From: Candidatus Zixiibacteriota bacterium | Lineage (GTDB): Bacteria > Zixibacteria > MSB-5A5 > GN15 > FEB-12 | NCBI GenBank assembly: GCA_034439475.1 | Contig: JAWXAN010000035.1 | Coordinates: 5,908 to 69,907, forward strand | DNA: 64,000 bases | Direction of reading: 5' to 3' | In this document: one piece after another, positions 2,230 through 56,747 of the stretch | Layout of the letters: every line of letters begins with the position of its first letter | Numbering within the stretch: position 1 is the stretch's first letter | Notes under the pieces: model-generated | Databases searched by the model: none | Told to the model about the DNA's origin: nothing | The model's input: only the letters and a program-made list of their open reading frames with translations | Program-made: the position numbers and the translations under genes

Positions 2230-2339
2230 ATTACAGGTCGTGAGAACCGGCGGACATGGGGTCGATCGGACGGACTAATTTACAACAAATATGGCGGTTG
2301 TAAAGTGGGGAATTTCTGTGGGCGGAGGGCTTGTCTGTG

Positions 2340-2514
2340 GTGTCGGGCGCCCTCGCCCGACACTATGGTTACAACAGTCAGGCGGGGGCGCCTGACTGCG
2401 CAGAAAAAGATGAACTGTAACCGTCGGGTCGTCCGCATTGGCGGACTCAGAAGCGGGACTCGCAATGGCCGGCGGACAATGTGTCGCCCAACCACAGTCC
2501 GCCGCGGCGGACTG
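2340..2514. repeat. three GC-rich palindromic hairpin modules (H1 2340-2363, H2 2375-2398, H3 2495-2514)
   Basis: H1 is GTGTCGGGCG-CCCT-CGCCCGACAC. H2 is CAGTCAGGCG-GGGG-CGCCTGACTG. H3 is CAGTCCGCC-GC-GGCGGACTG. The same three modules recur in inverted order at 39672-39767, and fragments occur at 3158-3180, 7247-7262 and 56582-56654. Confidence 0.85.
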
Positions 2515-2665
2515 ACCTACAAATCTCATCATACTCCGCCATCGGGTCTCTTTCCGTGGCTGGTGTACGTCCCACCACGCCTGCCCGCTGTGGCGGGGCG
2601 GACTTGAAAGCCTCGTGGACCAGCTACGAAATACGAAGCAAGTGACTTCGGTGCTTCAAAAACAG

Positions 2666-2751
2666 CGGAGAGACAGGGATTCGAACCCTGGATAGGGGTT
2701 ACCTATACACACTTTCCAGGCGTGCGCCTTCAACCACTCGGCCATCTCTCC
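2666..2751 (-). tRNA. tRNA-Ser(GGA)
   Basis: Minus strand sequence GGAGAGATGGCCGAGTGGTTGAAGGCG...CCAGGGTTCGAATCCCTGTCTCTCCG. The 7-bp acceptor stem is perfect, the anticodon loop is CU-GGA-AA, and there is a long variable arm. Confidence 0.92.
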
Positions 2752-3038
2752 GTCGGTCGATTCAGATCCCGCAGACGCGGGAACGGACAATGTACGATCT
2801 ACGACCAAAAAGGCAAGACGAAAGCGAAGGTGAGGGTTTGGCCGTAATTCTGTGGTGTCGGTTGGTTCTTGCGGATTCTTACAGACCGTCAGGTCATTCG
2901 CCGTGGGCGGACTTCGGAGGCCGCAGCACCTGTATCCTCGCTCACGCAACGATATTCCCAAGACCCGTCGGAACGGGTTAAAATTGGAAGAACAGATGTC
3001 AGTACCCAAGGGTCACTGACCTACGAATATCGGAGAAT

Positions 3039-3092
3039 ATGAGATTGCCGTCAGCCACGGCGGACGCCTCGGAAGTCGCTCCTCGCAACGAC
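3039..3092 (+). repeat. cassette repeat ATGAGATTGCC...CTCGCAACGAC (copy)
   Basis: Carries the conserved ends shared with copies at 10675-10727(+), 16083-16124(-), 32828-32863(+), 39620-39655(-), 42865-42913(+), 43142-43187(-) and 43299-43347(+). It is preceded by the flank module GACCTACGAATATCGGAGAAT. Confidence 0.75.
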
Positions 3093-3183
3093 GTGTTGTA
3101 AGATTCCTTATTACCCTCTACCTCTGGAAGAGGGCAGGGTGAGGGCGTATTCACTTCCATGGTGTCGGGCGTCTTCGCCTTTG

Positions 3184-10623: not shown

Positions 10624-10915
10624 ATGAAGATGGATTCTCCACCACTGCGAACTGGAATAATTGCATTTCAAGAACTGAGATTGCCACGTCGCTCGCCCTC
10701 ATTAGCGGACTCACTCCTCGCAACGACACGTTTAGAGAATGTTGGTGCACCGGAACGTATACCAACCACTGAGTATCGTTCGTCGTGCGGGACGTCACGG
10801 TAGCCACTAAGTGACCGTCAGGTCATCCACCACTGGCGGACTTCGGTCGCCTCAGCACTCCTCCTCGTTGCCTCGGAGTGGGCAAGATCCGACGGAAGCG
10901 AGTCAGCTTGTATAA

Positions 10916-32676: not shown

Positions 32677-32932
32677 TTTTTTTATAGGGGGGGGCGAATC
32701 AACATAAGAGTGTCTTTCATTTATGTCATTCCCGTGCCTGTCCGACGGGCGTAAAAACGGGAATCCAGTATTAATATTCGTGCGGTCCGCCGCGGCGGAC
32801 TGTCGCGCACCAAAGATAAAGACGAATATGAGATTGCCATGTCGCCTCGCTCCTCGCAACGACAGTGTCGGGAATGTCTGCATTAAGTTAGCGTATCCCC
32901 TCCGCCGCGAGGGTCGGTGCGATCTCCCTGTC

Positions 32933-32961: not shown

Positions 32962-33203
32962 AAAAAATTGGGCAACCACGGAGGGTTGCCCCTACAGAAG
33001 CATAAGAGCGCCATTAATTATAGATTATGTAGGGGCAGGTCCCTGTGCCTGCCCTCTTTCTCAGGACGCCGGACAGCATACAAGGTAAATGGCACTCCGC
33101 CGTGGAGGGTCGCTTCGCTCCTCGCAACGACTTGCCGGTAGTGTCTGCTTGAATTTGCTTGCCCGCTTTTAGGCGGCCTTCTTACAATGAAAAAAAACGA
33201 ACT

Positions 33204-39482: not shown

Positions 39483-39671
39483 TTTTCGCGAACGAGTATT
39501 TGAATTGCTGAGTTAATTCGTAAGTCAGTCCCGCGGCGGCGGGGTATCCAGGGTAAATAGTCGTGCACTCCACCTCGCCGGAATGGGGTACCCGAATCCA
39601 CGCAGTCATTTCGCAGTGAGTCGTTGCGAGGAACGAAGTGACGAAGCAATCTCAGTTCTCCGATATTCGTA

Positions 39672-39767
39672 GGTCAGTCCGCCGCGGCGGACTGACCCCT
39701 TAAATTTTGTGCAGTCAGGCGCCCCCGCCTGACTGTCTAAAATGTGTCGGGTAGGGGCGCCCGACAC
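39672..39767. repeat. hairpin modules H3-H2-H1 in inverted order relative to 2340-2514
   Basis: GGTCAGTCCGCCGCGGCGGACTGACC (39672-39697, a perfect 26-nt palindrome), CAGTCAGGCG-CCCC-CGCCTGACTG (39712-39735) and GTGTCGGG-TAGGGGCG-CCCGACAC (39744-39767). Confidence 0.85.
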
Positions 39768-39799
39768 CACGTTGCACACACTCTGGCAGCGAATTTCGC

Positions 39800-39828
39800 T
39801 TGCTGGACTTCGAATGATGGCATATATA
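39800..39828 (+). promoter_or_regulatory. candidate promoter of the HEPN-NACHT gene
   Basis: TTGCTG (39800-39805), a 17-nt spacer, then TATATA (39823-39828). This favours the ATG at 39856 as the start rather than the upstream Met codons. Confidence 0.4.
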
Positions 39829-39855
39829 GCAGCGAGGAGTCATCCAAAATACAAT

Positions 39856-40140
39856 ATGACTGATATTAGTCCTAAGCTAAAAGGCAAGATTTCCGACTTT
39901 GTTGATACCAGCGTCCTACCTTTCTTAATCCAGAAATTCAATCCTTCTATCCCCACATTGTTGAAACAAGTTTTCGAGAATGACTATCTTTTAGACTCGT
40001 CTAAGCAGAAAAGCGATGCCGAGATCCGAATCCGAAAATTCGGCCACCTTGACCATGAAGATTTTCAGACTGTCCTAAAGATTGTCATTTTTCAGCAAGG
40101 AATTCAAGCTCGATCCGGCCGACATACAAGTTTTCTATGA
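39856..40140 (+). CDS. N-terminal half of a Swt1-like HEPN domain (5' fragment of a frameshifted HEPN-NACHT gene)
   Basis: This frame ends 48 nt after a T5 run (40088-40092). The sequence ...IRKFGHLDHEDFQTVLKIVIF continues naturally into SKEFKLDPADIQVFYDVKKFRDNALAH in the +1 frame. Confidence 0.55.
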   Translation: MTDISPKLKGKISDFVDTSVLPFLIQKFNPSIPTLLKQVFENDYLLDSSKQKSDAEIRIRKFGHLDHEDFQTVLKIVIFQQGIQARSGRHTSFL

Positions 40141-42823
40141 CGTAAAAAAATTCAGGGATAATGCGCTCGCACACAATCGCCGTCGCCAAGGCGGTACCCC
40201 TCGAAACGAAAGAGATTTTGCAACTGGTCTAGCCTCAATACCCAAAATGCTTGCAATTCTCTCAGCGCCAGAGGATTTAACTTCTAAGACTCATGCCTTA
40301 GAAGTGGAGTCCGTTCCTAGTGATATCAAGAAAACCCTTCAAGATAACTTCGATAGCGAGTCCCAACGGGCTGACTCTCCATCAGCCAAATCGGTCCACT
40401 CTAAGTCTTTCCAGTTTCCGCAAAACATTACTTGGCTGAGCCAAATTACTGAGAACCGCACTGGTTCCTTAACCGATAAGTTTGTCGGTCGCAAAAATCT
40501 GATGAACAAAATCGAAAACGAGGTGGTAGCCAGACACAAATCTTCATGGTTATTTTTTGCTCCACCTGGTTTTGGGAAATCTGCGATTGCGGCATCTTTG
40601 TTCGGGAGACTAAAACAACCACAGTGGCAACAAGGGCAACAAACAATTTATGTCGCCATTCATTATATCCTGTATAATGACAGCCTGACTCACGAGATCA
40701 TCAATATGGGGCTCAGCCTTGCAAAGCAATTGAGCGACTCATTGAATATGCCTATTTTTTCTCAAGAAGAACAACCACATCTCGATAGCGTTAACATTGC
40801 GCACTGGTTGTCTGACGTTCTCAAAACATTCTCTTCGCCGGAAAGAAAGTTTATCTTTATCGTCGATGGGATCGATGAAGCGCCTGATGGGACTAGATCA
40901 AAAATCATTGCCTTTCTCAAAACAATAGCCGAGTCGGGATTGGTCACTCCAGTAATTCTTTCGAGAGACATTAAAGAGTTCGACTGTGATCCGGATATGA
41001 CTTTAAGCTTCACAGATGAGGAACAACTAAAAGATATTTTTGATTACGTGAAACGTGAACTCGCTACCTGGCGTTCCGAAGAAATTCGAGAACAGTGGTC
41101 GAATGCAATTTCCAAGGCAACAGATGGCCAATTTATATATGCAAAGTACGTTGTTATTGGTGTTTTGAATGATATTTATCTAAACGTAGAGGAAATCGAG
41201 CAACTGCCAAAAAAATTGAAAGACCTGTATAAACGGACTCTTGATGACTTGGGGAAGTCGCACAGCGATGGAACAGTGTTTCTTGATCATATTGTTCCAT
41301 TTTTGTCGACATTGCTCGTATCCGAAGGTAGCGTATGGTTAGATGTTTTGGTGGCCATACTCGAACAAAGAGGCATAGATGCTCGGTATACGCAATCGGT
41401 TATTAGCAAACTAAGGCAATGGTTGCGGGATTATCCCGATTCACCGTCACACCAAATCGAGCTTTGCCACAAGACGCTCCACGACTTCTTGTTATTGGAT
41501 GAAGTGATCAGTTCAGAGCTTACCAAGGCACATTTAGAGTGGGCAAAGTACTTTATTGAGAATCTTGAGGAACAGGATCATTACGATCAGGTTGTCACAC
41601 ACATTCAAAAGGGCGGCAGTTCCGACCTTCTCATGGAATTACTTGGGAAGACAGATTACCTGAAAAATATTGCCATCGGCAAAAAACTTAGACCCTCGCA
41701 CGAAGACGAAGAAGAAGAAGATCGAGTGTGTTACCCCGATGAGACGGTCGATTACTTTCTTCATTTTTGGCTCCCAGCTATCGAACATCCTATATTTGGA
41801 GAGTATGGAGGAATCCCCTCGTTGGCTGGAAGAGGTGTTGACTGCTCATCACTTGTGCTTCGCTTCAGTTTATTTGATAAATTGTTTCGGTATTTGGACA
41901 AGATACCTGGAAGTATAATTAATTTGGCACAAATAAATCCCAGGCATTGTGAAGACATCCTTCCCTTGATGGGAAAACGACAACCTGAATACTTGGCACT
42001 TAGAGAATTGGGCGTTATTAACCTACCCTATTCTTTTGAGCAAACGCTCTTGAATCCGCGTCCCGGACAAGGTCTAATTTCAGGGGTGGATCGTTCTTTA
42101 AGAGGCACATCCGAACTGGTAACTGAGATTAGAAATATTGAGCCGGTAGAGTCAGAGTCCGCCAGTGCCCAGTTCTATCAACAGTACCACCAGTTGAGCT
42201 TGCTTCATAATCTGGTTTATGCACCTGACTGCATCGAATATTCCGCACTCGTTAGAACAATTACTCGAGAGGTAATTGGATCTATTATAGGGTGCATCAA
42301 TTCGGATGAAGATCCGATATTATATAAGCAATTCTATCACGTCCATCGCGGTGAAATGGTATTGAACTCGGATATTTTTCAAGACTACTGGTATTTTGTT
42401 TTGAAACGATGGCCAGATTTTTTCTTTGAGATATTGACGAATTTCGAACAACTTAGCGCCAGTGGCAGAATCCGCACTCGCAGACGGAGTTGTGATAGAA
42501 AGTGGAATGAGTACGAGGCTTTGAAAGTCATAAGCTGGGCGGTCGTATGCTACCTACCAAAACCCGAATTGAAGGACGCCATCGTGCGTCTTTCAAACAT
42601 TTTTCCTCCGTCGAACGCGTATGATAAAATATTCTCAAGTGGTCTCGATATCTTTCGGTATTGTTTTGAAGTAAGCGACGACGAATTATTCGAAACTATA
42701 GACCGACTAGCGCCGGGATTCAGCGATGTTGCAAGAGTACAATCCTCGAGGATGTGGTCAAAACTTCTTGAAGGAGAAAGGACAGACGTTGACTTCGTAG
42801 TACTGAGAGATTCGCTCAAGTAG
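40082..42823 (+). CDS. NACHT/STAND P-loop NTPase with N-terminal HEPN (R-x5-H) motif and about 500-aa helical C-terminal region
   Basis: 913-aa ORF that begins at a TTG. It carries the HEPN motif KKFRDNALAH, the STAND lead-in FVGRKNLMNKIE, Walker A APPGFGKSAIA and a NACHT-type Walker B FIFIVDGIDEA. The C-terminal half is unassigned. It is low in G+C (hand counts of about 30-48% per 60-nt line). Confidence 0.75.
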   Translation: MSFFSKEFKLDPADIQVFYDVKKFRDNALAHNRRRQGGTPRNERDFATGLASIPKMLAILSAPEDLTSKTHALEVESVPSDIKKTLQDNFDSESQRADSPSAKSVHSKSFQFPQNITWLSQITENRTGSLTDKFVGRKNLMNKIENEVVARHKSSWLFFAPPGFGKSAIAASLFGRLKQPQWQQGQQTIYVAIHYILYNDSLTHEIINMGLSLAKQLSDSLNMPIFSQEEQPHLDSVNIAHWLSDVLKTFSSPERKFIFIVDGIDEAPDGTRSKIIAFLKTIAESGLVTPVILSRDIKEFDCDPDMTLSFTDEEQLKDIFDYVKRELATWRSEEIREQWSNAISKATDGQFIYAKYVVIGVLNDIYLNVEEIEQLPKKLKDLYKRTLDDLGKSHSDGTVFLDHIVPFLSTLLVSEGSVWLDVLVAILEQRGIDARYTQSVISKLRQWLRDYPDSPSHQIELCHKTLHDFLLLDEVISSELTKAHLEWAKYFIENLEEQDHYDQVVTHIQKGGSSDLLMELLGKTDYLKNIAIGKKLRPSHEDEEEEDRVCYPDETVDYFLHFWLPAIEHPIFGEYGGIPSLAGRGVDCSSLVLRFSLFDKLFRYLDKIPGSIINLAQINPRHCEDILPLMGKRQPEYLALRELGVINLPYSFEQTLLNPRPGQGLISGVDRSLRGTSELVTEIRNIEPVESESASAQFYQQYHQLSLLHNLVYAPDCIEYSALVRTITREVIGSIIGCINSDEDPILYKQFYHVHRGEMVLNSDIFQDYWYFVLKRWPDFFFEILTNFEQLSASGRIRTRRRSCDRKWNEYEALKVISWAVVCYLPKPELKDAIVRLSNIFPPSNAYDKIFSSGLDIFRYCFEVSDDELFETIDRLAPGFSDVARVQSSRMWSKLLEGERTDVDFVVLRDSLK

Positions 42824-42864
42824 TTCTGATTTTATATCGAGCGCCGAGGTGATCAAATCCAAAT

Positions 42865-42913
42865 ATGAGATTGCCACGCCACGTCTAAGAAGTCGCGGCC
42901 CGCAATGACGGGG
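42865..42913 (+). repeat. cassette repeat copy 1 (ATGAGATTGCCACG...CGCAATGACGGGG)
   Basis: 46 of 49 positions are identical to 43299-43347. Confidence 0.85.
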
Positions 42914-43141
42914 CTGCCTGACCTACAATTATCGGAGAAGATGGATTCTCCGCCACGGCGGACTGGAATGACATGTGATAAAATTTCTTTGTCATCGCAC
43001 AAAGCGTCTCGACATTCGTTGGGACGGTGGGTATCAATATCGGTGCGCGACCGGGACGTCCCGCACGAAGACTAACACTGTCTGCCCACTTTCCCGCCGT
43101 GGCCGAGTGTGGTACAAGATTACGAGTGTAGTGTTTCAGTA

Positions 43142-43187
43142 CGTCATTGCGAGTTTCACTTTCTGAAGTGAAACGTGGCAATCTCAT
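43142..43187 (-). repeat. cassette repeat, inverted copy with a different internal hairpin
   Basis: The minus strand reads ATGAGATTGCCACG-GTTTCACTTCAGAAAGTGAAAC-TCGCAATGACG. The ends are the same as in the other copies, but the core is an unrelated perfect hairpin. Confidence 0.85.
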
Positions 43188-43298
43188 GTTCTCCGATATT
43201 CGTAGATCATACCTTCCGGTGCCCCTATATCCGTTCTTCGTGCGGGACGTCCCGGTCGCGCACCAAAGTTAAAGCGACGCTCACGGCAGCAGACTAAC

Positions 43299-43347
43299 AT
43301 GAGATTGCCACGCCACGTCTAAGAAGCCGCGGCTCGCAATGACGGGT
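43299..43347 (+). repeat. cassette repeat copy 3
   Basis: Direct repeat of 42865-42913. Its core contains the perfect palindrome AGCCGCGGCT. Confidence 0.85.
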
Positions 43348-43360
43348 TGAGGATTTAGTT

Positions 43361-43388
43361 TTAACAAGAGCAATCTGAGATGTATAAT
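43361..43388 (+). promoter_or_regulatory. candidate promoter of the 254-aa nuclease-like gene
   Basis: TTAACA (43361-43366), a 16-nt spacer, then TATAAT (43383-43388). An RBS AAGGGAGA precedes the TTG start at 43414. Confidence 0.5.
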
Positions 43389-43413
43389 ATGCATAGAATA
43401 AAGGGAGACAATT

Positions 43414-44178
43414 TTGGCCAAACAGACATTTGATCAACGAGCAGACCCAGCATCATTAGCACGGGCGAATAGACTACTCGCTGGAGTGGAACGACACGAA
43501 CTAGTGGCGACTAAATCAAATCCGCGTGAACAGTCTACTGTACCAAATTACTTTCTATCATTCAAGACTCGCGAAAATATTTGTATTGCAAATCTGTGTT
43601 TGTGGGATAACGGAACTGTGGCCGTAGAATTCCGACATCCCGACTTTCTCGCTCCAGAGCATTTGGACGATACAGATGTCAAACTTTACGGTAGCATGAG
43701 CTGGCCACAATATCGTTACCGTGATCACAATCGAGAAGCAAAGGCTTTAAGACTATTGTCTTCTTATCTCGATATGATAGGACCAGCCGTGCTTGCAAGA
43801 CAGGTGGCCATACGTGGATCTAGTAAGGCGGAGCGTTCTCTACGAAACAGACTAAAGGAGCTCTTTCCGACAACAAGCTTTACTTACAATTATCGCGGCT
43901 TCGACTGGTTAGGAAAATTGGAACTTGACATCGTACTAACTGGTGAAAATCTTGCAATCGAAGTTCAAGGAGAGCAACATTTCAAGCCAGTGTGGGGAGA
44001 AGAGCATCTTTTAAGAATTACGATAAACGATTCCAAGAAAGCGATGCTTTGTGAAAAGAATGGATTTTCTTTGATAAGAATTACAACGGCTCAGGCTCTC
44101 AGAATTTCGAATGAAGATTTAAAGGCGGTTGTTCAAAAAGCAATCACTAACAAATGCAGTCTGATCGATATAGGATAA
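43414..44178 (+). CDS. two-domain protein: unknown N-terminal domain + DUF559/Vsr-like PD-(D/E)XK endonuclease-like C-terminal domain
   Basis: 254 aa. The C-terminal block SKAERSLRNRLKELF...GKLELDIVLTGENLAIEVQGEQHF...NDSKKAMLCEKNGFSLIRI matches the DUF559/DUF2726/Vsr-type layout (helix, D, E-x-Q/K, H, and a C-terminal G..hhRh). The N-terminal 130 aa or so have no motif I recognise. Confidence 0.55.
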   Translation: MAKQTFDQRADPASLARANRLLAGVERHELVATKSNPREQSTVPNYFLSFKTRENICIANLCLWDNGTVAVEFRHPDFLAPEHLDDTDVKLYGSMSWPQYRYRDHNREAKALRLLSSYLDMIGPAVLARQVAIRGSSKAERSLRNRLKELFPTTSFTYNYRGFDWLGKLELDIVLTGENLAIEVQGEQHFKPVWGEEHLLRITINDSKKAMLCEKNGFSLIRITTAQALRISNEDLKAVVQKAITNKCSLIDIG

Positions 44179-44196
44179 ATTCGAAGAATACCCCCC

Positions 44197-45204
44197 CTAC
44201 TCCAGCGTCTTCACCCTCTCGACCAGCGCGTTGAAAATATCAGGTCTTGACTTGTCATTGCCAGCAATTCTATATTCTTTCAACGCCTGCTTTAATGTCT
44301 CAACACCCTGTTTCGTCTTGCCCAGCCCAATCTCAATTTCGCCCATCTCCTCAAGCGCCTGAGCGATGGCATCATGGTCTTCCAGCCGCTCCGCCCAAGC
44401 CAGCATCGGGCGAATCCATTTTGCGGCCTCGTCATATTCCCCCAGATGGCGATAGGTCATGCCTATGTGATAATCGGCAAACAGTTTCGAGCGTTCAGCC
44501 GAATGACGCCAGTGGTATTCGCGCGAAGTGATATAGGCCGCAAGCGCACTATCATAGGCTTTCATCTCATAAAATGTGGCGCCAAGATTATTCCAAAGCG
44601 GCCCAAGCCAGCTTGGGACTTCGCCTTCCTCGGCGGCGGCGATCCCCTGTCGGCTCCAATCGATGCGCTCTTCGGGTTTCTCGCAGACAATCGCAAGCAT
44701 ATTTGCGGCATCGACCGCCCGCGCCCAAAGGTTGTTGGTTCGACAGTATTCATGCAGTTCCATAAACGTCTCACGGGATTTGGGAAGGCTGTCCTCTTTC
44801 CATTCGAAGCGTCCCCGCACACTCAAATACCGACTCCAGCCCATCTGGTCACTCTGATTGGCCCGAATCTTCGCTTTTTCAAGAATAGGTCGGCCTTCTT
44901 CAATGCGGTTCAGCCCAATATACATACGGGCCATCTGTGAAAGGGCCTCGGTCTCAATTGACGGATTGAACTCTTTGCGGGCCAGCGCGGCGGCCGAATC
45001 GTATTGTTCAAGCGCGGTCGCATAGTCGCGCTTTTGAAAGGTCGAGTCGGCCAGCTTTAACAGTGAATCGGCAGTGATTTCAGCCTGTGGATCAATCATA
45101 GTTGCCTTGTTTGGCTTGGATATTCGGTCTATTGCATCTGCTGGCGCAATAAATATGGCGGCTATGGCTAATACGATAGTGCCGATGGACACGAAAAGTC
45201 TCAT
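44197..45204 (-). CDS. secreted tetratricopeptide-repeat protein
   Basis: Start at 45204 (RBS AAGGAG), signal peptide MRLFVSIGTIVLAIAAIFIAPADA, then several TPR-like A/Y/L repeats. Confidence 0.7.
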   Translation of the reverse strand: MRLFVSIGTIVLAIAAIFIAPADAIDRISKPNKATMIDPQAEITADSLLKLADSTFQKRDYATALEQYDSAAALARKEFNPSIETEALSQMARMYIGLNRIEEGRPILEKAKIRANQSDQMGWSRYLSVRGRFEWKEDSLPKSRETFMELHEYCRTNNLWARAVDAANMLAIVCEKPEERIDWSRQGIAAAEEGEVPSWLGPLWNNLGATFYEMKAYDSALAAYITSREYHWRHSAERSKLFADYHIGMTYRHLGEYDEAAKWIRPMLAWAERLEDHDAIAQALEEMGEIEIGLGKTKQGVETLKQALKEYRIAGNDKSRPDIFNALVERVKTLE

Positions 45205-45298
45205 TATGTCTCCTTGGTGGTAGCATCCGTTCAAGTATAATCGATACTTTCCTATATTTCAACTAGAGACAAAGCTAAATCCCTGCTTGCTTTAGCCG

Positions 45299-55571: not shown

Positions 55572-56489
55572 ATGGGAACCCTGTCACCAAAAATATTCGA
55601 ATGGCTATTCCGACTCGCCCGCCCCGAGCAGTGGATTAAAAACGGGCTGGTTATCATTCCATTAGTCTTCGCTGGCGAGGCTGGCTCGGTTTACAAAATC
55701 GAACGAATCATAGCCGCCTTTGTGATTTTTTGCCTGCTCTCGTCGTCGATGTATACTATCAACGACTTGGTCGATCGCGACAAAGACAAAATCCATCCGC
55801 TCAAAAAAAGCCGTCCGATTGCCTCTGGAAAAGTGAGTCCGACCCAGGCTGTGGTCTTTGCCTCACTTCTCATGGCCGCTGGTCTGGCTGGAGCGTGGCT
55901 GTTGGGAAGAAGTTTTTTTGTCATAGCAGGCACATTTGTACTTCTCAATCTCGCCTACTCGTTCGCGCTCAAAAATGTTGTCATTCTGGATGCCATGAGC
56001 ATTGCCTTCAGTTTTGTCCTTCGAACTTTTGCAGGCGCGGCGGCTATTGATGTTGTCGCTTCAAAGTGGATGCTTATAAACACGTTTCTGCTGGCCCTCT
56101 TTTTGGTTTTTGGCAAACGAAGACACGAGCTTGTTATGTTGGACAAAATAGCCACCGCTCATCGGGCCATTCTGGGAAAATACTCGTCGTATTTATTAGA
56201 CCAGCTTATTGCCGTCACAACTCCGTCGGTGGTGGTGATGTATATGCTCTATTCTTTTTCAAGCGAGGTCTCAGAGAAGTTGGGGACTGAGAACCTTTAT
56301 TTGACAATTCCGTTTGTTGTCTATGGAATTTTCAGGTATCTCTATTTGATTCACAAAGAAGACAAGGGGGGTTCACCGACGACAGTGTTGTTTGGCGACC
56401 GCCCAATTTTGTTCACTGTTATTCTTTGGATGATTACTGTTTTTGTTGTTCTGTATACGAGCCCGGGGAATCTCAGTTCCCCGATATAA
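55572..56489 (+). CDS. UbiA-family prenyl-phosphate transferase, decaprenyl-phosphate phosphoribosyltransferase-like
   Basis: 305 aa, polytopic, with the NDLVDRDKDKIHPLKKSRPIASG motif. Confidence 0.65.
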   Translation: MGTLSPKIFEWLFRLARPEQWIKNGLVIIPLVFAGEAGSVYKIERIIAAFVIFCLLSSSMYTINDLVDRDKDKIHPLKKSRPIASGKVSPTQAVVFASLLMAAGLAGAWLLGRSFFVIAGTFVLLNLAYSFALKNVVILDAMSIAFSFVLRTFAGAAAIDVVASKWMLINTFLLALFLVFGKRRHELVMLDKIATAHRAILGKYSSYLLDQLIAVTTPSVVVMYMLYSFSSEVSEKLGTENLYLTIPFVVYGIFRYLYLIHKEDKGGSPTTVLFGDRPILFTVILWMITVFVVLYTSPGNLSSPI

Positions 56490-56747
56490 GTAGATCATAC
56501 CTTCTTAGGTCTCGACATCTTCTCTTCATCTTGTAGCACGAGTCATTCTTATGCCCCGCGAGTCTTTATTCCTGAAGAATACGCCCTCGCCCGACATTAT
56601 GATTGAACTGTCAGGCGAGGGCTTTCAAGTCCGCCGAAGGAGGGCGCCTGACAGCACTGATAACCTTAACTGAGGTTGCTTCGCCTGCCCGCCGTGGAGG
56701 GTCACTTCGTTCCTCGAAACGACTCACCCTTTGGTGACCTGCAATAC

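Follow-up and report, generated by a model that had tools for sequence, protein, structure and literature searches.

STAND NTPases with a role in defence have been the subject of large surveys. Avs proteins follow an effector-NTPase-sensor tripartite logic, and bNACHT proteins combine an N-terminal effector, a NACHT module with a winged helix, and a variable C-terminal region. The Walker B motif D[GAS]hDE serves as the definition of NACHT proteins in the bNACHT study, where HEPN is also listed among the domains fused to NACHT (Kibby et al., 'Bacterial NLR-related proteins protect against phage', 10.1101/2022.07.19.500537). Among the EDxHD homing endonucleases, the I-Bth0305I family includes free-standing genes, and its members carry a DNA-binding N-terminus and a Vsr-like C-terminus (PMC3239194). 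Apparent relatives of both kinds of protein lie side by side in a 64,000-nt stretch of contig JAWXAN010000035.1 (hereafter the window), from a Candidatus Zixiibacteriota bacterium of the poorly studied phylum Zixibacteria. Two plus-strand coding regions, here called gene 1 (39856-42823) and gene 2 (43414-44178), are found there between a DinB-family gene and a convergent TPR gene. In an initial annotation, they were read together as a candidate defence module of uncharacterised type. The reading that is favoured here, with a probability of about 0.6, is that they are two independent genes, a HEPN-NACHT pseudogene and a free-standing nuclease.

Gene 1 appears to be organized like a bNACHT protein, with a candidate N-terminal effector, a NACHT module that has the D[GAS]hDE Walker B and a winged helix, and a C-terminal region of the variable kind. 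It differs from bNACHT proteins in that the identity of its NTPase is <=26%, its C-terminus belongs to no family, no PADLOC model recognizes it, and its reading frame is shifted. The tripartite logic of Avs proteins would also be shared, but gene 1 has no Avs match at E<=1, and its putative sensor is unrelated by sequence to known Avs sensors; Avs1b is the nearest PADLOC model, matched weakly (1e-8 to 1e-12) by the NTPase regions of its relatives P0006, P0091 and P0012. P0091, an uncharacterised metagenomic protein of 546 aa (HEPN_Swt1-NPHP3_N-AAA_lid_TANC1), has the same domain order and a colinear N-terminus, but it is short and lacks the long C-terminal domain. Altogether, HEPN-NACHT fusions have been catalogued before, and public data include a HEPN_Swt1-NPHP3_N protein, contrary to the suggestion of an uncharacterised architecture. 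The architecture is known in kind, and gene 1 appears to be a very divergent, apparently inactivated instance of it with an unclassified C-terminus.

Gene 2 and the Vsr/EDxHD-type nucleases

Gene 2 (43414-44178, plus strand) encodes 254 aa from a TTG start. It has a promoter and a ribosome-binding site of its own, as first annotated: a TTAACA-16-TATAAT promoter with 11/12 consensus positions lies at 43361-43388, and a GGGAG box lies at 43403-43407, 6 nt before the TTG. Full-length homologues were found three times, at about 50% identity, and an AlphaFold2 (AF2) model based on the three-sequence family alignment (A1) reached a predicted local distance difference test score (pLDDT) of 77. The C-terminal half of this model resembles E. 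coli Vsr (1cw0/1vsr), with a probability of 1.0, a template modelling (TM) score of 0.57-0.58 and an E-value of about 0.01, and the N-terminal half weakly resembles the C-terminal DNA-binding domain of T4 MotA. Among the viral models of BFVD, 125 matched at E<=1e-3, including VSR homing endonucleases, DUF559, DUF2726 and zinc-ribbon nuclease proteins. PHROG families of homing and intron nucleases were also matched (phrog_559, 1e-17; phrog_9084, 3e-11; phrog_7140, 9e-7). The Vsr structure match, the viral structural matches and the PHROG families all agree with the DUF559/Vsr-like fold first proposed for gene 2. Moreover, a profile search with gene 2 reached DUF4379/DUF723 proteins, of which one is encoded on a phage-like contig, and the nuclease domain alone was found in 55 viral contigs.

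The predicted protein would thus consist of a beta-rich N-terminal domain (residues about 1-130), a possible DNA-binding module, and a PD-(D/E)XK nuclease domain of Vsr/EDxHD type (residues about 135-254) with D172, E183, H189 and D206 as its putative catalytic set. These four residues are kept in all sequences aligned at those positions, and Q185 alternates with D across the family. The Asp-His spacing of 17 residues is that of I-Bth0305I, and spacing suggests that D172/H189/D206 correspond to D51/H69/D97 of Vsr. With I-Bth0305I and other EDxHD homing endonucleases (PMC3239194), gene 2 shares the two-domain layout, this spacing and the PHROG matches. It differs from them in its N-terminus, which is not of NUMOD or helix-turn-helix (HTH) type but beta-rich and weakly like the MotA C-terminal domain, in the motif E-x-Q-G-x-Q-H, and in having no intron, intein or known target. 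The fold of the catalytic domain is shared with E. coli Vsr (PDB 1vsr, 1cw0) and with DUF559, which is among the best viral structural matches, but unlike Vsr, gene 2 has no adjacent Dcm methyltransferase and carries the extra 130-aa N-terminal domain. By its modelled fold, the PHROG families and the D/E/H/D set, gene 2 is classed as a Vsr/EDxHD-type nuclease and as a new small family. This assignment has to be set against the lack of any sequence match to gene 2 in Pfam (Vsr and DUF559 included), NCBIfam, PADLOC or the PDB, and against the flanks of the gene, which contain neither an intron nor an intein, and no target site marking a true homing enzyme.

Homologues of gene 2 are found in dissimilar surroundings. 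One of them (L010, contig Ga0105099_10012519, 3279-4037) lies 20 nt downstream of mfd, has a G+C of 33% compared with 49% for mfd, and is interrupted at codon 98 by an in-frame stop (TAA), so that it represents a low-G+C insert in decay in a genome other than this one. Another lies upstream of an aconitase-family gene (L007), and the remaining ones lie among amidase or ABC-permease genes (L032, L033). In L007, positions 1-60 are Illumina adapter sequence, and the first called 'gene' of that contig is an assembly artefact. A phage-like contig (L035) carries P0100, a distant relative of the nuclease domain. No NACHT protein or other relative of gene 1 was detected in the four homologue contexts or in L035.

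It could also be hypothesized that gene 2 is a domesticated nuclease of repair or restriction type, nicking DNA in a Vsr-like manner or acting as an orphan restriction endonuclease, rather than a selfish enzyme of homing type. The Vsr fold, the homologue placed directly after mfd, the conservation of the N-terminal domain in the four family members and the absence of an associated intron or intein would all suit such a role. However, no cytosine methyltransferase partner lies nearby, the distribution is sporadic, with low G+C at different loci and an in-frame stop in one copy, and it is families of phage homing and intron nucleases that match it best in sequence. Domestication is considered possible but doubtful. 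Gene 2 is better described as a separately transcribed, free-standing endonuclease, probably made of a DNA-binding beta-rich N-terminus and a Vsr/EDxHD catalytic domain, which most likely would cut or nick DNA as a selfish or orphan nuclease.

Domains of the gene 1 protein

Gene 1 (39856-42823, plus strand) yields a protein of 988 aa after the removal of one T, and all residue numbers below refer to this repaired protein. On the strength of its motifs and profile matches it is placed securely in the NACHT clade of STAND NTPases, in agreement with the initial annotation. The NACHT module, with its lid and winged-helix regions, covers residues 205-615 (40469-41701, plus strand). It matches NPHP3_N (PF24883) at 42.4 bits, above the cutoff of 24.8 (1.1e-10), and AAA_16 as well; the match to NACHT itself (PF05729) is sub-threshold (16 bits vs 26.7). 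All motifs that had been quoted in the initial annotation (R-x5-H, FVGR, GFGKS, VDGIDE) are present: FVGR at 209-212, GFGKS at 238-242 (K241), VDGIDE at 336-341 and FRDNALAH at 99-106. Further motifs are the sensor-1 R370 (ILSR), GQFIYAKY at 424-431 and the winged-helix His538. The Walker A follows GxxxxGK[ST] (GPPGFGKSA/APPGFGKSA, K241) and aligns with that of relatives, and the Walker B, FIFIVDGIDEA, follows D[GAS]hDE (D337-G-I-D-E341). The sensor-1 Arg and the winged-helix His align with TIR-NACHT-TPR/WD40 relatives. The lid and winged helix are recognized by alignment only, GQFIYAKY and CH538KTLHDFL matching the GNFLYA and HxSxxEFL blocks of relatives.

Searched exhaustively with phmmer, a set of 1.84 billion representative proteins yielded 88 matches at E<=1e-3, all through residues about 190-615, with a best identity of 26% between the gene 1 NTPase and any database protein. 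When nine of the top relatives were scanned, NPHP3_N/NACHT cores were found in every one (9/9), and four (4/9) proved to be TIR-NACHT proteins with TPR or WD40 tails. A word-indexed homologue search returned gene 1 itself only, and a PDB sequence search gave nothing useful for the full-length protein. The C-terminal region of about 370 aa (residues 616-988; 41702-42820, plus strand) matches no Pfam family and had no homologue in the exhaustive search. Its last 90 residues or so weakly resemble the C-terminal tails of the NACHT relatives P0011 and P0007. From its position alone, this region is regarded as a putative sensor.

The N-terminus of gene 1 is quite probably a divergent Swt1-like HEPN domain (residues 23-163; 39922-40345, plus strand), with R100-x5-H106 (40154-40174, plus strand) as its putative catalytic motif. 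The lead was a weak colinear match between the N-terminus of gene 1 and that of P0091, in which a genuine HEPN_Swt1 (PF18731, 4.2e-23) is fused to NPHP3_N; the pairwise similarity of the two proteins is not significant in the HEPN region alone. Further members with a Swt1 HEPN were sought among the 88 NACHT matches, and only P0091 qualified. A profile was made of 13 genuine Swt1-family HEPN domains, the 12 beyond P0091 being taken from plasmid-borne DUF499/Swt1 proteins, and was used in a single test of one prior hypothesis. On residues 23-163 it scored 14.0 bits (E 1.9e-6 for one test), and the best score among 5000 shuffles and 1169 natural ORF (open reading frame) fragments was 7.9 bits. 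The halves on either side of the frameshift described below scored 2.5 and 8.3 bits alone and 14.0 bits jointly. In the alignment, F-R100-D-N-A-L-A-H106-N falls on the family motif RNxWAHN with a one-residue insertion (Rx4-6H in family context), and MLAILSAPE falls on the Swt1 family block LL.AvSApE.

Other results point away from this assignment. The Pfam HEPN family (HEPN_Swt1, PF18731) gave no match at E<=1 with the full protein and none at E<=10 with residues 1-208. The comparison of gene 1 with Swt1 by hhalign gave P 3.8e-4 and a probability of 36% only. A single-sequence AF2 model of residues 1-208 had a pLDDT of 38.7 and, helical though it was by DSSP, could not be used for a fold search. 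The Swt1-like HEPN segment of the initial annotation is therefore upheld by the custom profile, significant for a single test, and not by Pfam or by a structure model; this motif-level call stood only after the directed profile test. Alternatively, the N-terminal domain may not be a HEPN RNase but some unknown adaptor or signalling domain attached to a NACHT ATPase, and gene 1 need not belong to defence. This is in line with the absence of Pfam and PADLOC matches, the low hhalign probability and the housekeeping neighbours of the gene, and Rx4-6H is expected by chance about 0.75 times per 200 aa by our estimate. But the profile score exceeds those of all 5000 shuffled and 1169 natural controls, the match is colinear over about 140 residues with the RNxWAHN and LL.A.SAPE blocks in place, and in a related NACHT protein this position is taken by a genuine Swt1 HEPN. 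A domain other than HEPN is judged unlikely, and the Swt1-like HEPN is retained.

A match to phycobilisome-linker repeats (CpcN, summed E 0.0014) at residues 20-81 (39915-40098) was judged to be due to chance, because it was the sum of three repeats with i-Evalues each >40 and no Pfam PBS-linker or DUF4214 match accompanied it. The CpcN-like stretch coincides with the N-terminal half of the HEPN-like domain. In the plasmid loci from which Swt1 profile members were drawn (L038-L049), the Swt1-family HEPN forms the N-terminus of DUF499 proteins of about 1100 aa, usually encoded directly downstream of DUF1156 genes; these plasmids come from Thermus, cyanobacteria, actinobacteria and proteobacteria.

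The frameshift in gene 1 and the proposed mechanism

Gene 1 is split over two overlapping ORFs, 39742/39856-40140 in frame 1 and 40082-42823 in frame 2. The likeliest start is the ATG at 39856; other annotations use the ATG at 39819. Frame 1 is open from ATG 39856 to a run of five T (T5; 40088-40092, plus strand, codon 79/80), which lies within the HEPN-like domain and at which the deletion of one T joins frame 2. The need for a frame repair, already suspected, is thus confirmed as a +1 frame change through a 1-nt insertion at this run. At least 11 contigs that were assembled independently share the identical frameshift (L009 and L028-L031 among them), and the T5 run recurs in a Logan contig (four samples) and in contigs of the Joint Genome Institute (JGI) and NCBI. 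Because of this identity across independent assemblies, it is taken to exist in the population itself rather than to result from faulty assembly. The whole 6.4-kb islet is 100% identical across all assemblies save one mismatch, and cluster members of other length (P0092, P0095) are alternative start calls only. Moreover, the Swt1 profile alignment runs straight across the T5 junction, which supports an originally continuous ORF. Gene 1 in this genome is most likely a recent pseudogene that arose by a recent inactivating mutation, and a working defence module is unlikely here because gene 1 is frameshifted in every assembly.

It could be argued that gene 1 is functional, and that T5 is the site of a programmed +1 ribosomal frameshift or a phase-variable switch by which a toxic effector is kept mostly off. 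The 913 codons downstream of T5 are intact, and the frameshift is fixed in all assemblies and situated in a homopolymer. With assemblies identical apart from one mismatch, neither a frameshift polymorphism nor a ratio of nonsynonymous to synonymous substitution (dN/dS) was obtainable, and a recent pseudogenisation and a regulated frameshift look alike when there is no such variation, a point that tells against the pseudogene. On the other hand, the T5 run is short for slippage, and the intact codons are accounted for just as well if the population, 100% identical across samples, is clonal and acquired the mutation very recently. No Shine-Dalgarno-like stimulator and no slow or stop codon were seen at the T5 site, where the next codon is CAG. 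A programmed frameshift was set aside, no stimulatory element being visible, and a functional gene 1 is regarded as quite improbable.

The intact ancestor of the pseudogene would have encoded an NLR-like STAND protein composed of a HEPN effector (a putative RNase with R100/H106), a NACHT switch and a lineage-specific C-terminus of about 370 aa. The C-terminal domain may have bound an infection-derived ligand; NTP-dependent oligomerisation via the NACHT module would then have brought HEPN domains together, the joined domains could have formed a composite Rx4-6H RNase site, and RNA cleavage would have arrested growth or brought about abortive infection. Ligand sensing, oligomerisation, RNase activity and an antiphage role are all proposed here by analogy with bNACHT and Avs proteins. 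In this genome, the T5 insertion splits the putative HEPN domain, so that normal translation cannot yield the full-length protein. Should the repaired gene prove active, bacterial NLR-like immunity would gain a NACHT sensor that is armed with a Swt1 HEPN and has an unclassified C-terminus; sensor domains without relatives are where new phage-recognition specificities are now being found.

Among gene 1 and those of its relatives that were examined for context, only P0011 is found in a defence island, with the order DUF1156 methyltransferase - GmrSD_N - DUF499 - hypothetical - NACHT, of defence type (L053, 1-10368). P0007 is a lone low-G+C gene (39% vs 48%) amid housekeeping genes, much like gene 1. 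It can be imagined that gene 1, P0007 and P0011 represent a new family of antiviral STAND proteins that would pair a Swt1-HEPN RNase effector with an unrecognised sensor fold, T5 acting as a reversible switch that limits autoimmunity; this combination is considered highly improbable. The N-terminus of P0011 contains an RNKLSH motif that is HEPN-like and has no Pfam match.

Relation of the two genes, and their surroundings

As first annotated, two adjacent genes occupy the plus strand of the islet, gene 1 being distributed over two ORFs and gene 2 lying at 43414-44178. Their proposed association as one defence module found no support in co-occurrence, in five contexts on the side of gene 2 and two on the side of gene 1: besides the gene 2 contexts described above, no gene 2 homologue was found within 6 kb of P0007 or P0011 (L050, L053). 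A two-gene module is disfavoured because of this lack of co-occurrence, the 590-nt repeat spacer between the genes and the separate promoter of gene 2. The co-occurrence test drew on few, mostly short contigs, and so small a sample limits how far it speaks for independence. A single two-gene defence system, with the NACHT protein as sensor and switch and the downstream nuclease as a trans-acting DNase effector, is considered very improbable, for although the genes are adjacent on the same strand, both low in G+C, and contain domain types common in conflict systems, no STAND gene accompanies the gene 2 homologues nor any gene 2 homologue P0007 or P0011, a repeat mosaic and a promoter separate the two, and gene 1 already has an effector domain of its own. 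The evidence argues against gene 1 and gene 2 being partners, and the value of the case is mainly corrective: adjacency and low G+C do not make a system.

The G+C content is 43.0-43.2% in gene 1, 42.7% in gene 2 and 48.7% in the window. Compared with the 57 long ORFs of the window (48.9 ± 2.9% per gene), both genes have a z of about -2 and are among the lowest-G+C genes. At third codon positions (GC3), gene 1 has 43.7% and gene 2 has 35.7% vs 52.2 ± 5.3%, a z of about -3 for gene 2. The low-G+C islet of the initial annotation is real in this sense, but the contrast is far smaller than hand counts of single lines had implied. The low G+C is consistent with horizontal acquisition, and both genes are probably horizontally acquired accessory genes.

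The islet had also been described as bracketed by repeats. The upstream intergenic region (39483-39855) is a mosaic of palindromic repeat modules and includes a perfect 26-nt palindrome (39672-39697) and, after it, a T-rich tail, together terminator-like for the DinB-family gene. The 590 nt between the two genes (42824-43413) form a second mosaic, which also holds the gene 2 promoter and GGGAG box, with a direct repeat of 51 nt (42862-42912, 43296-43346) and a perfect inverted repeat of 30 nt (43042-43071, 43235-43264). The arms of the inverted repeat are 163 nt apart and nested within the direct repeats, which gives the whole the look of a composite element similar to a miniature inverted-repeat transposable element (MITE). 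Repeats in both regions are far above chance (one 22-mer has 4 copies vs 0 expected), and independent short-read assemblies of the same population break exactly within them. The repeats are thus genuine, but their modules recur across the window (about 2337-3093, 10626-10801, 32785-32821, 33113-33132 and 56476-56727), and they stand on both sides of gene 1 only, not of gene 2. They are a dispersed multi-copy intergenic family and not an islet-specific pair of ends. Rfam detected nothing in the repeat regions and only tRNAs elsewhere in the window.

The immediate upstream neighbour, first given as ettA/dinB, is a DinB-family gene (PF05163; 38979-39482). On the other side, the gap between the gene 2 stop and the convergent TPR gene (44197-45234) is exactly 18 nt (44179-44196), as had been noted. 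With ettA and gmd-type sugar genes close by, the immediate neighbours are housekeeping and not defence genes, and no defence-island context surrounds gene 1. The PADLOC check proposed in the initial annotation, run on both proteins with PADLOC-DB 2.0, returned 0 families at E<=1; this result and the housekeeping neighbourhood both count against a defence ancestry for gene 1. No integrase, tRNA or target-site duplication marks the islet. In an empty-site synteny search, the TPR neighbour had no relative in GTDB genomes, and EttA matched a Zixibacteria genome in which there was no synteny on that side, so that neither neighbour gave a syntenic genome from which the insertion boundaries of the islet could be placed. 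A second low-G+C gene is present at 969-2072 of the window (minus strand; G+C 41.2%, GC3 42.4%). It encodes a PDDEXK_4 nuclease (PF14281, 6.8e-21) and adjoins tRNA genes at 2145-2229 and 2666-2751 (both on the minus strand) and the mosaic repeats at 2337-3093. Its setting shows the same pattern as the islet of gene 1 and gene 2, low G+C together with copies of the mosaic repeat family.

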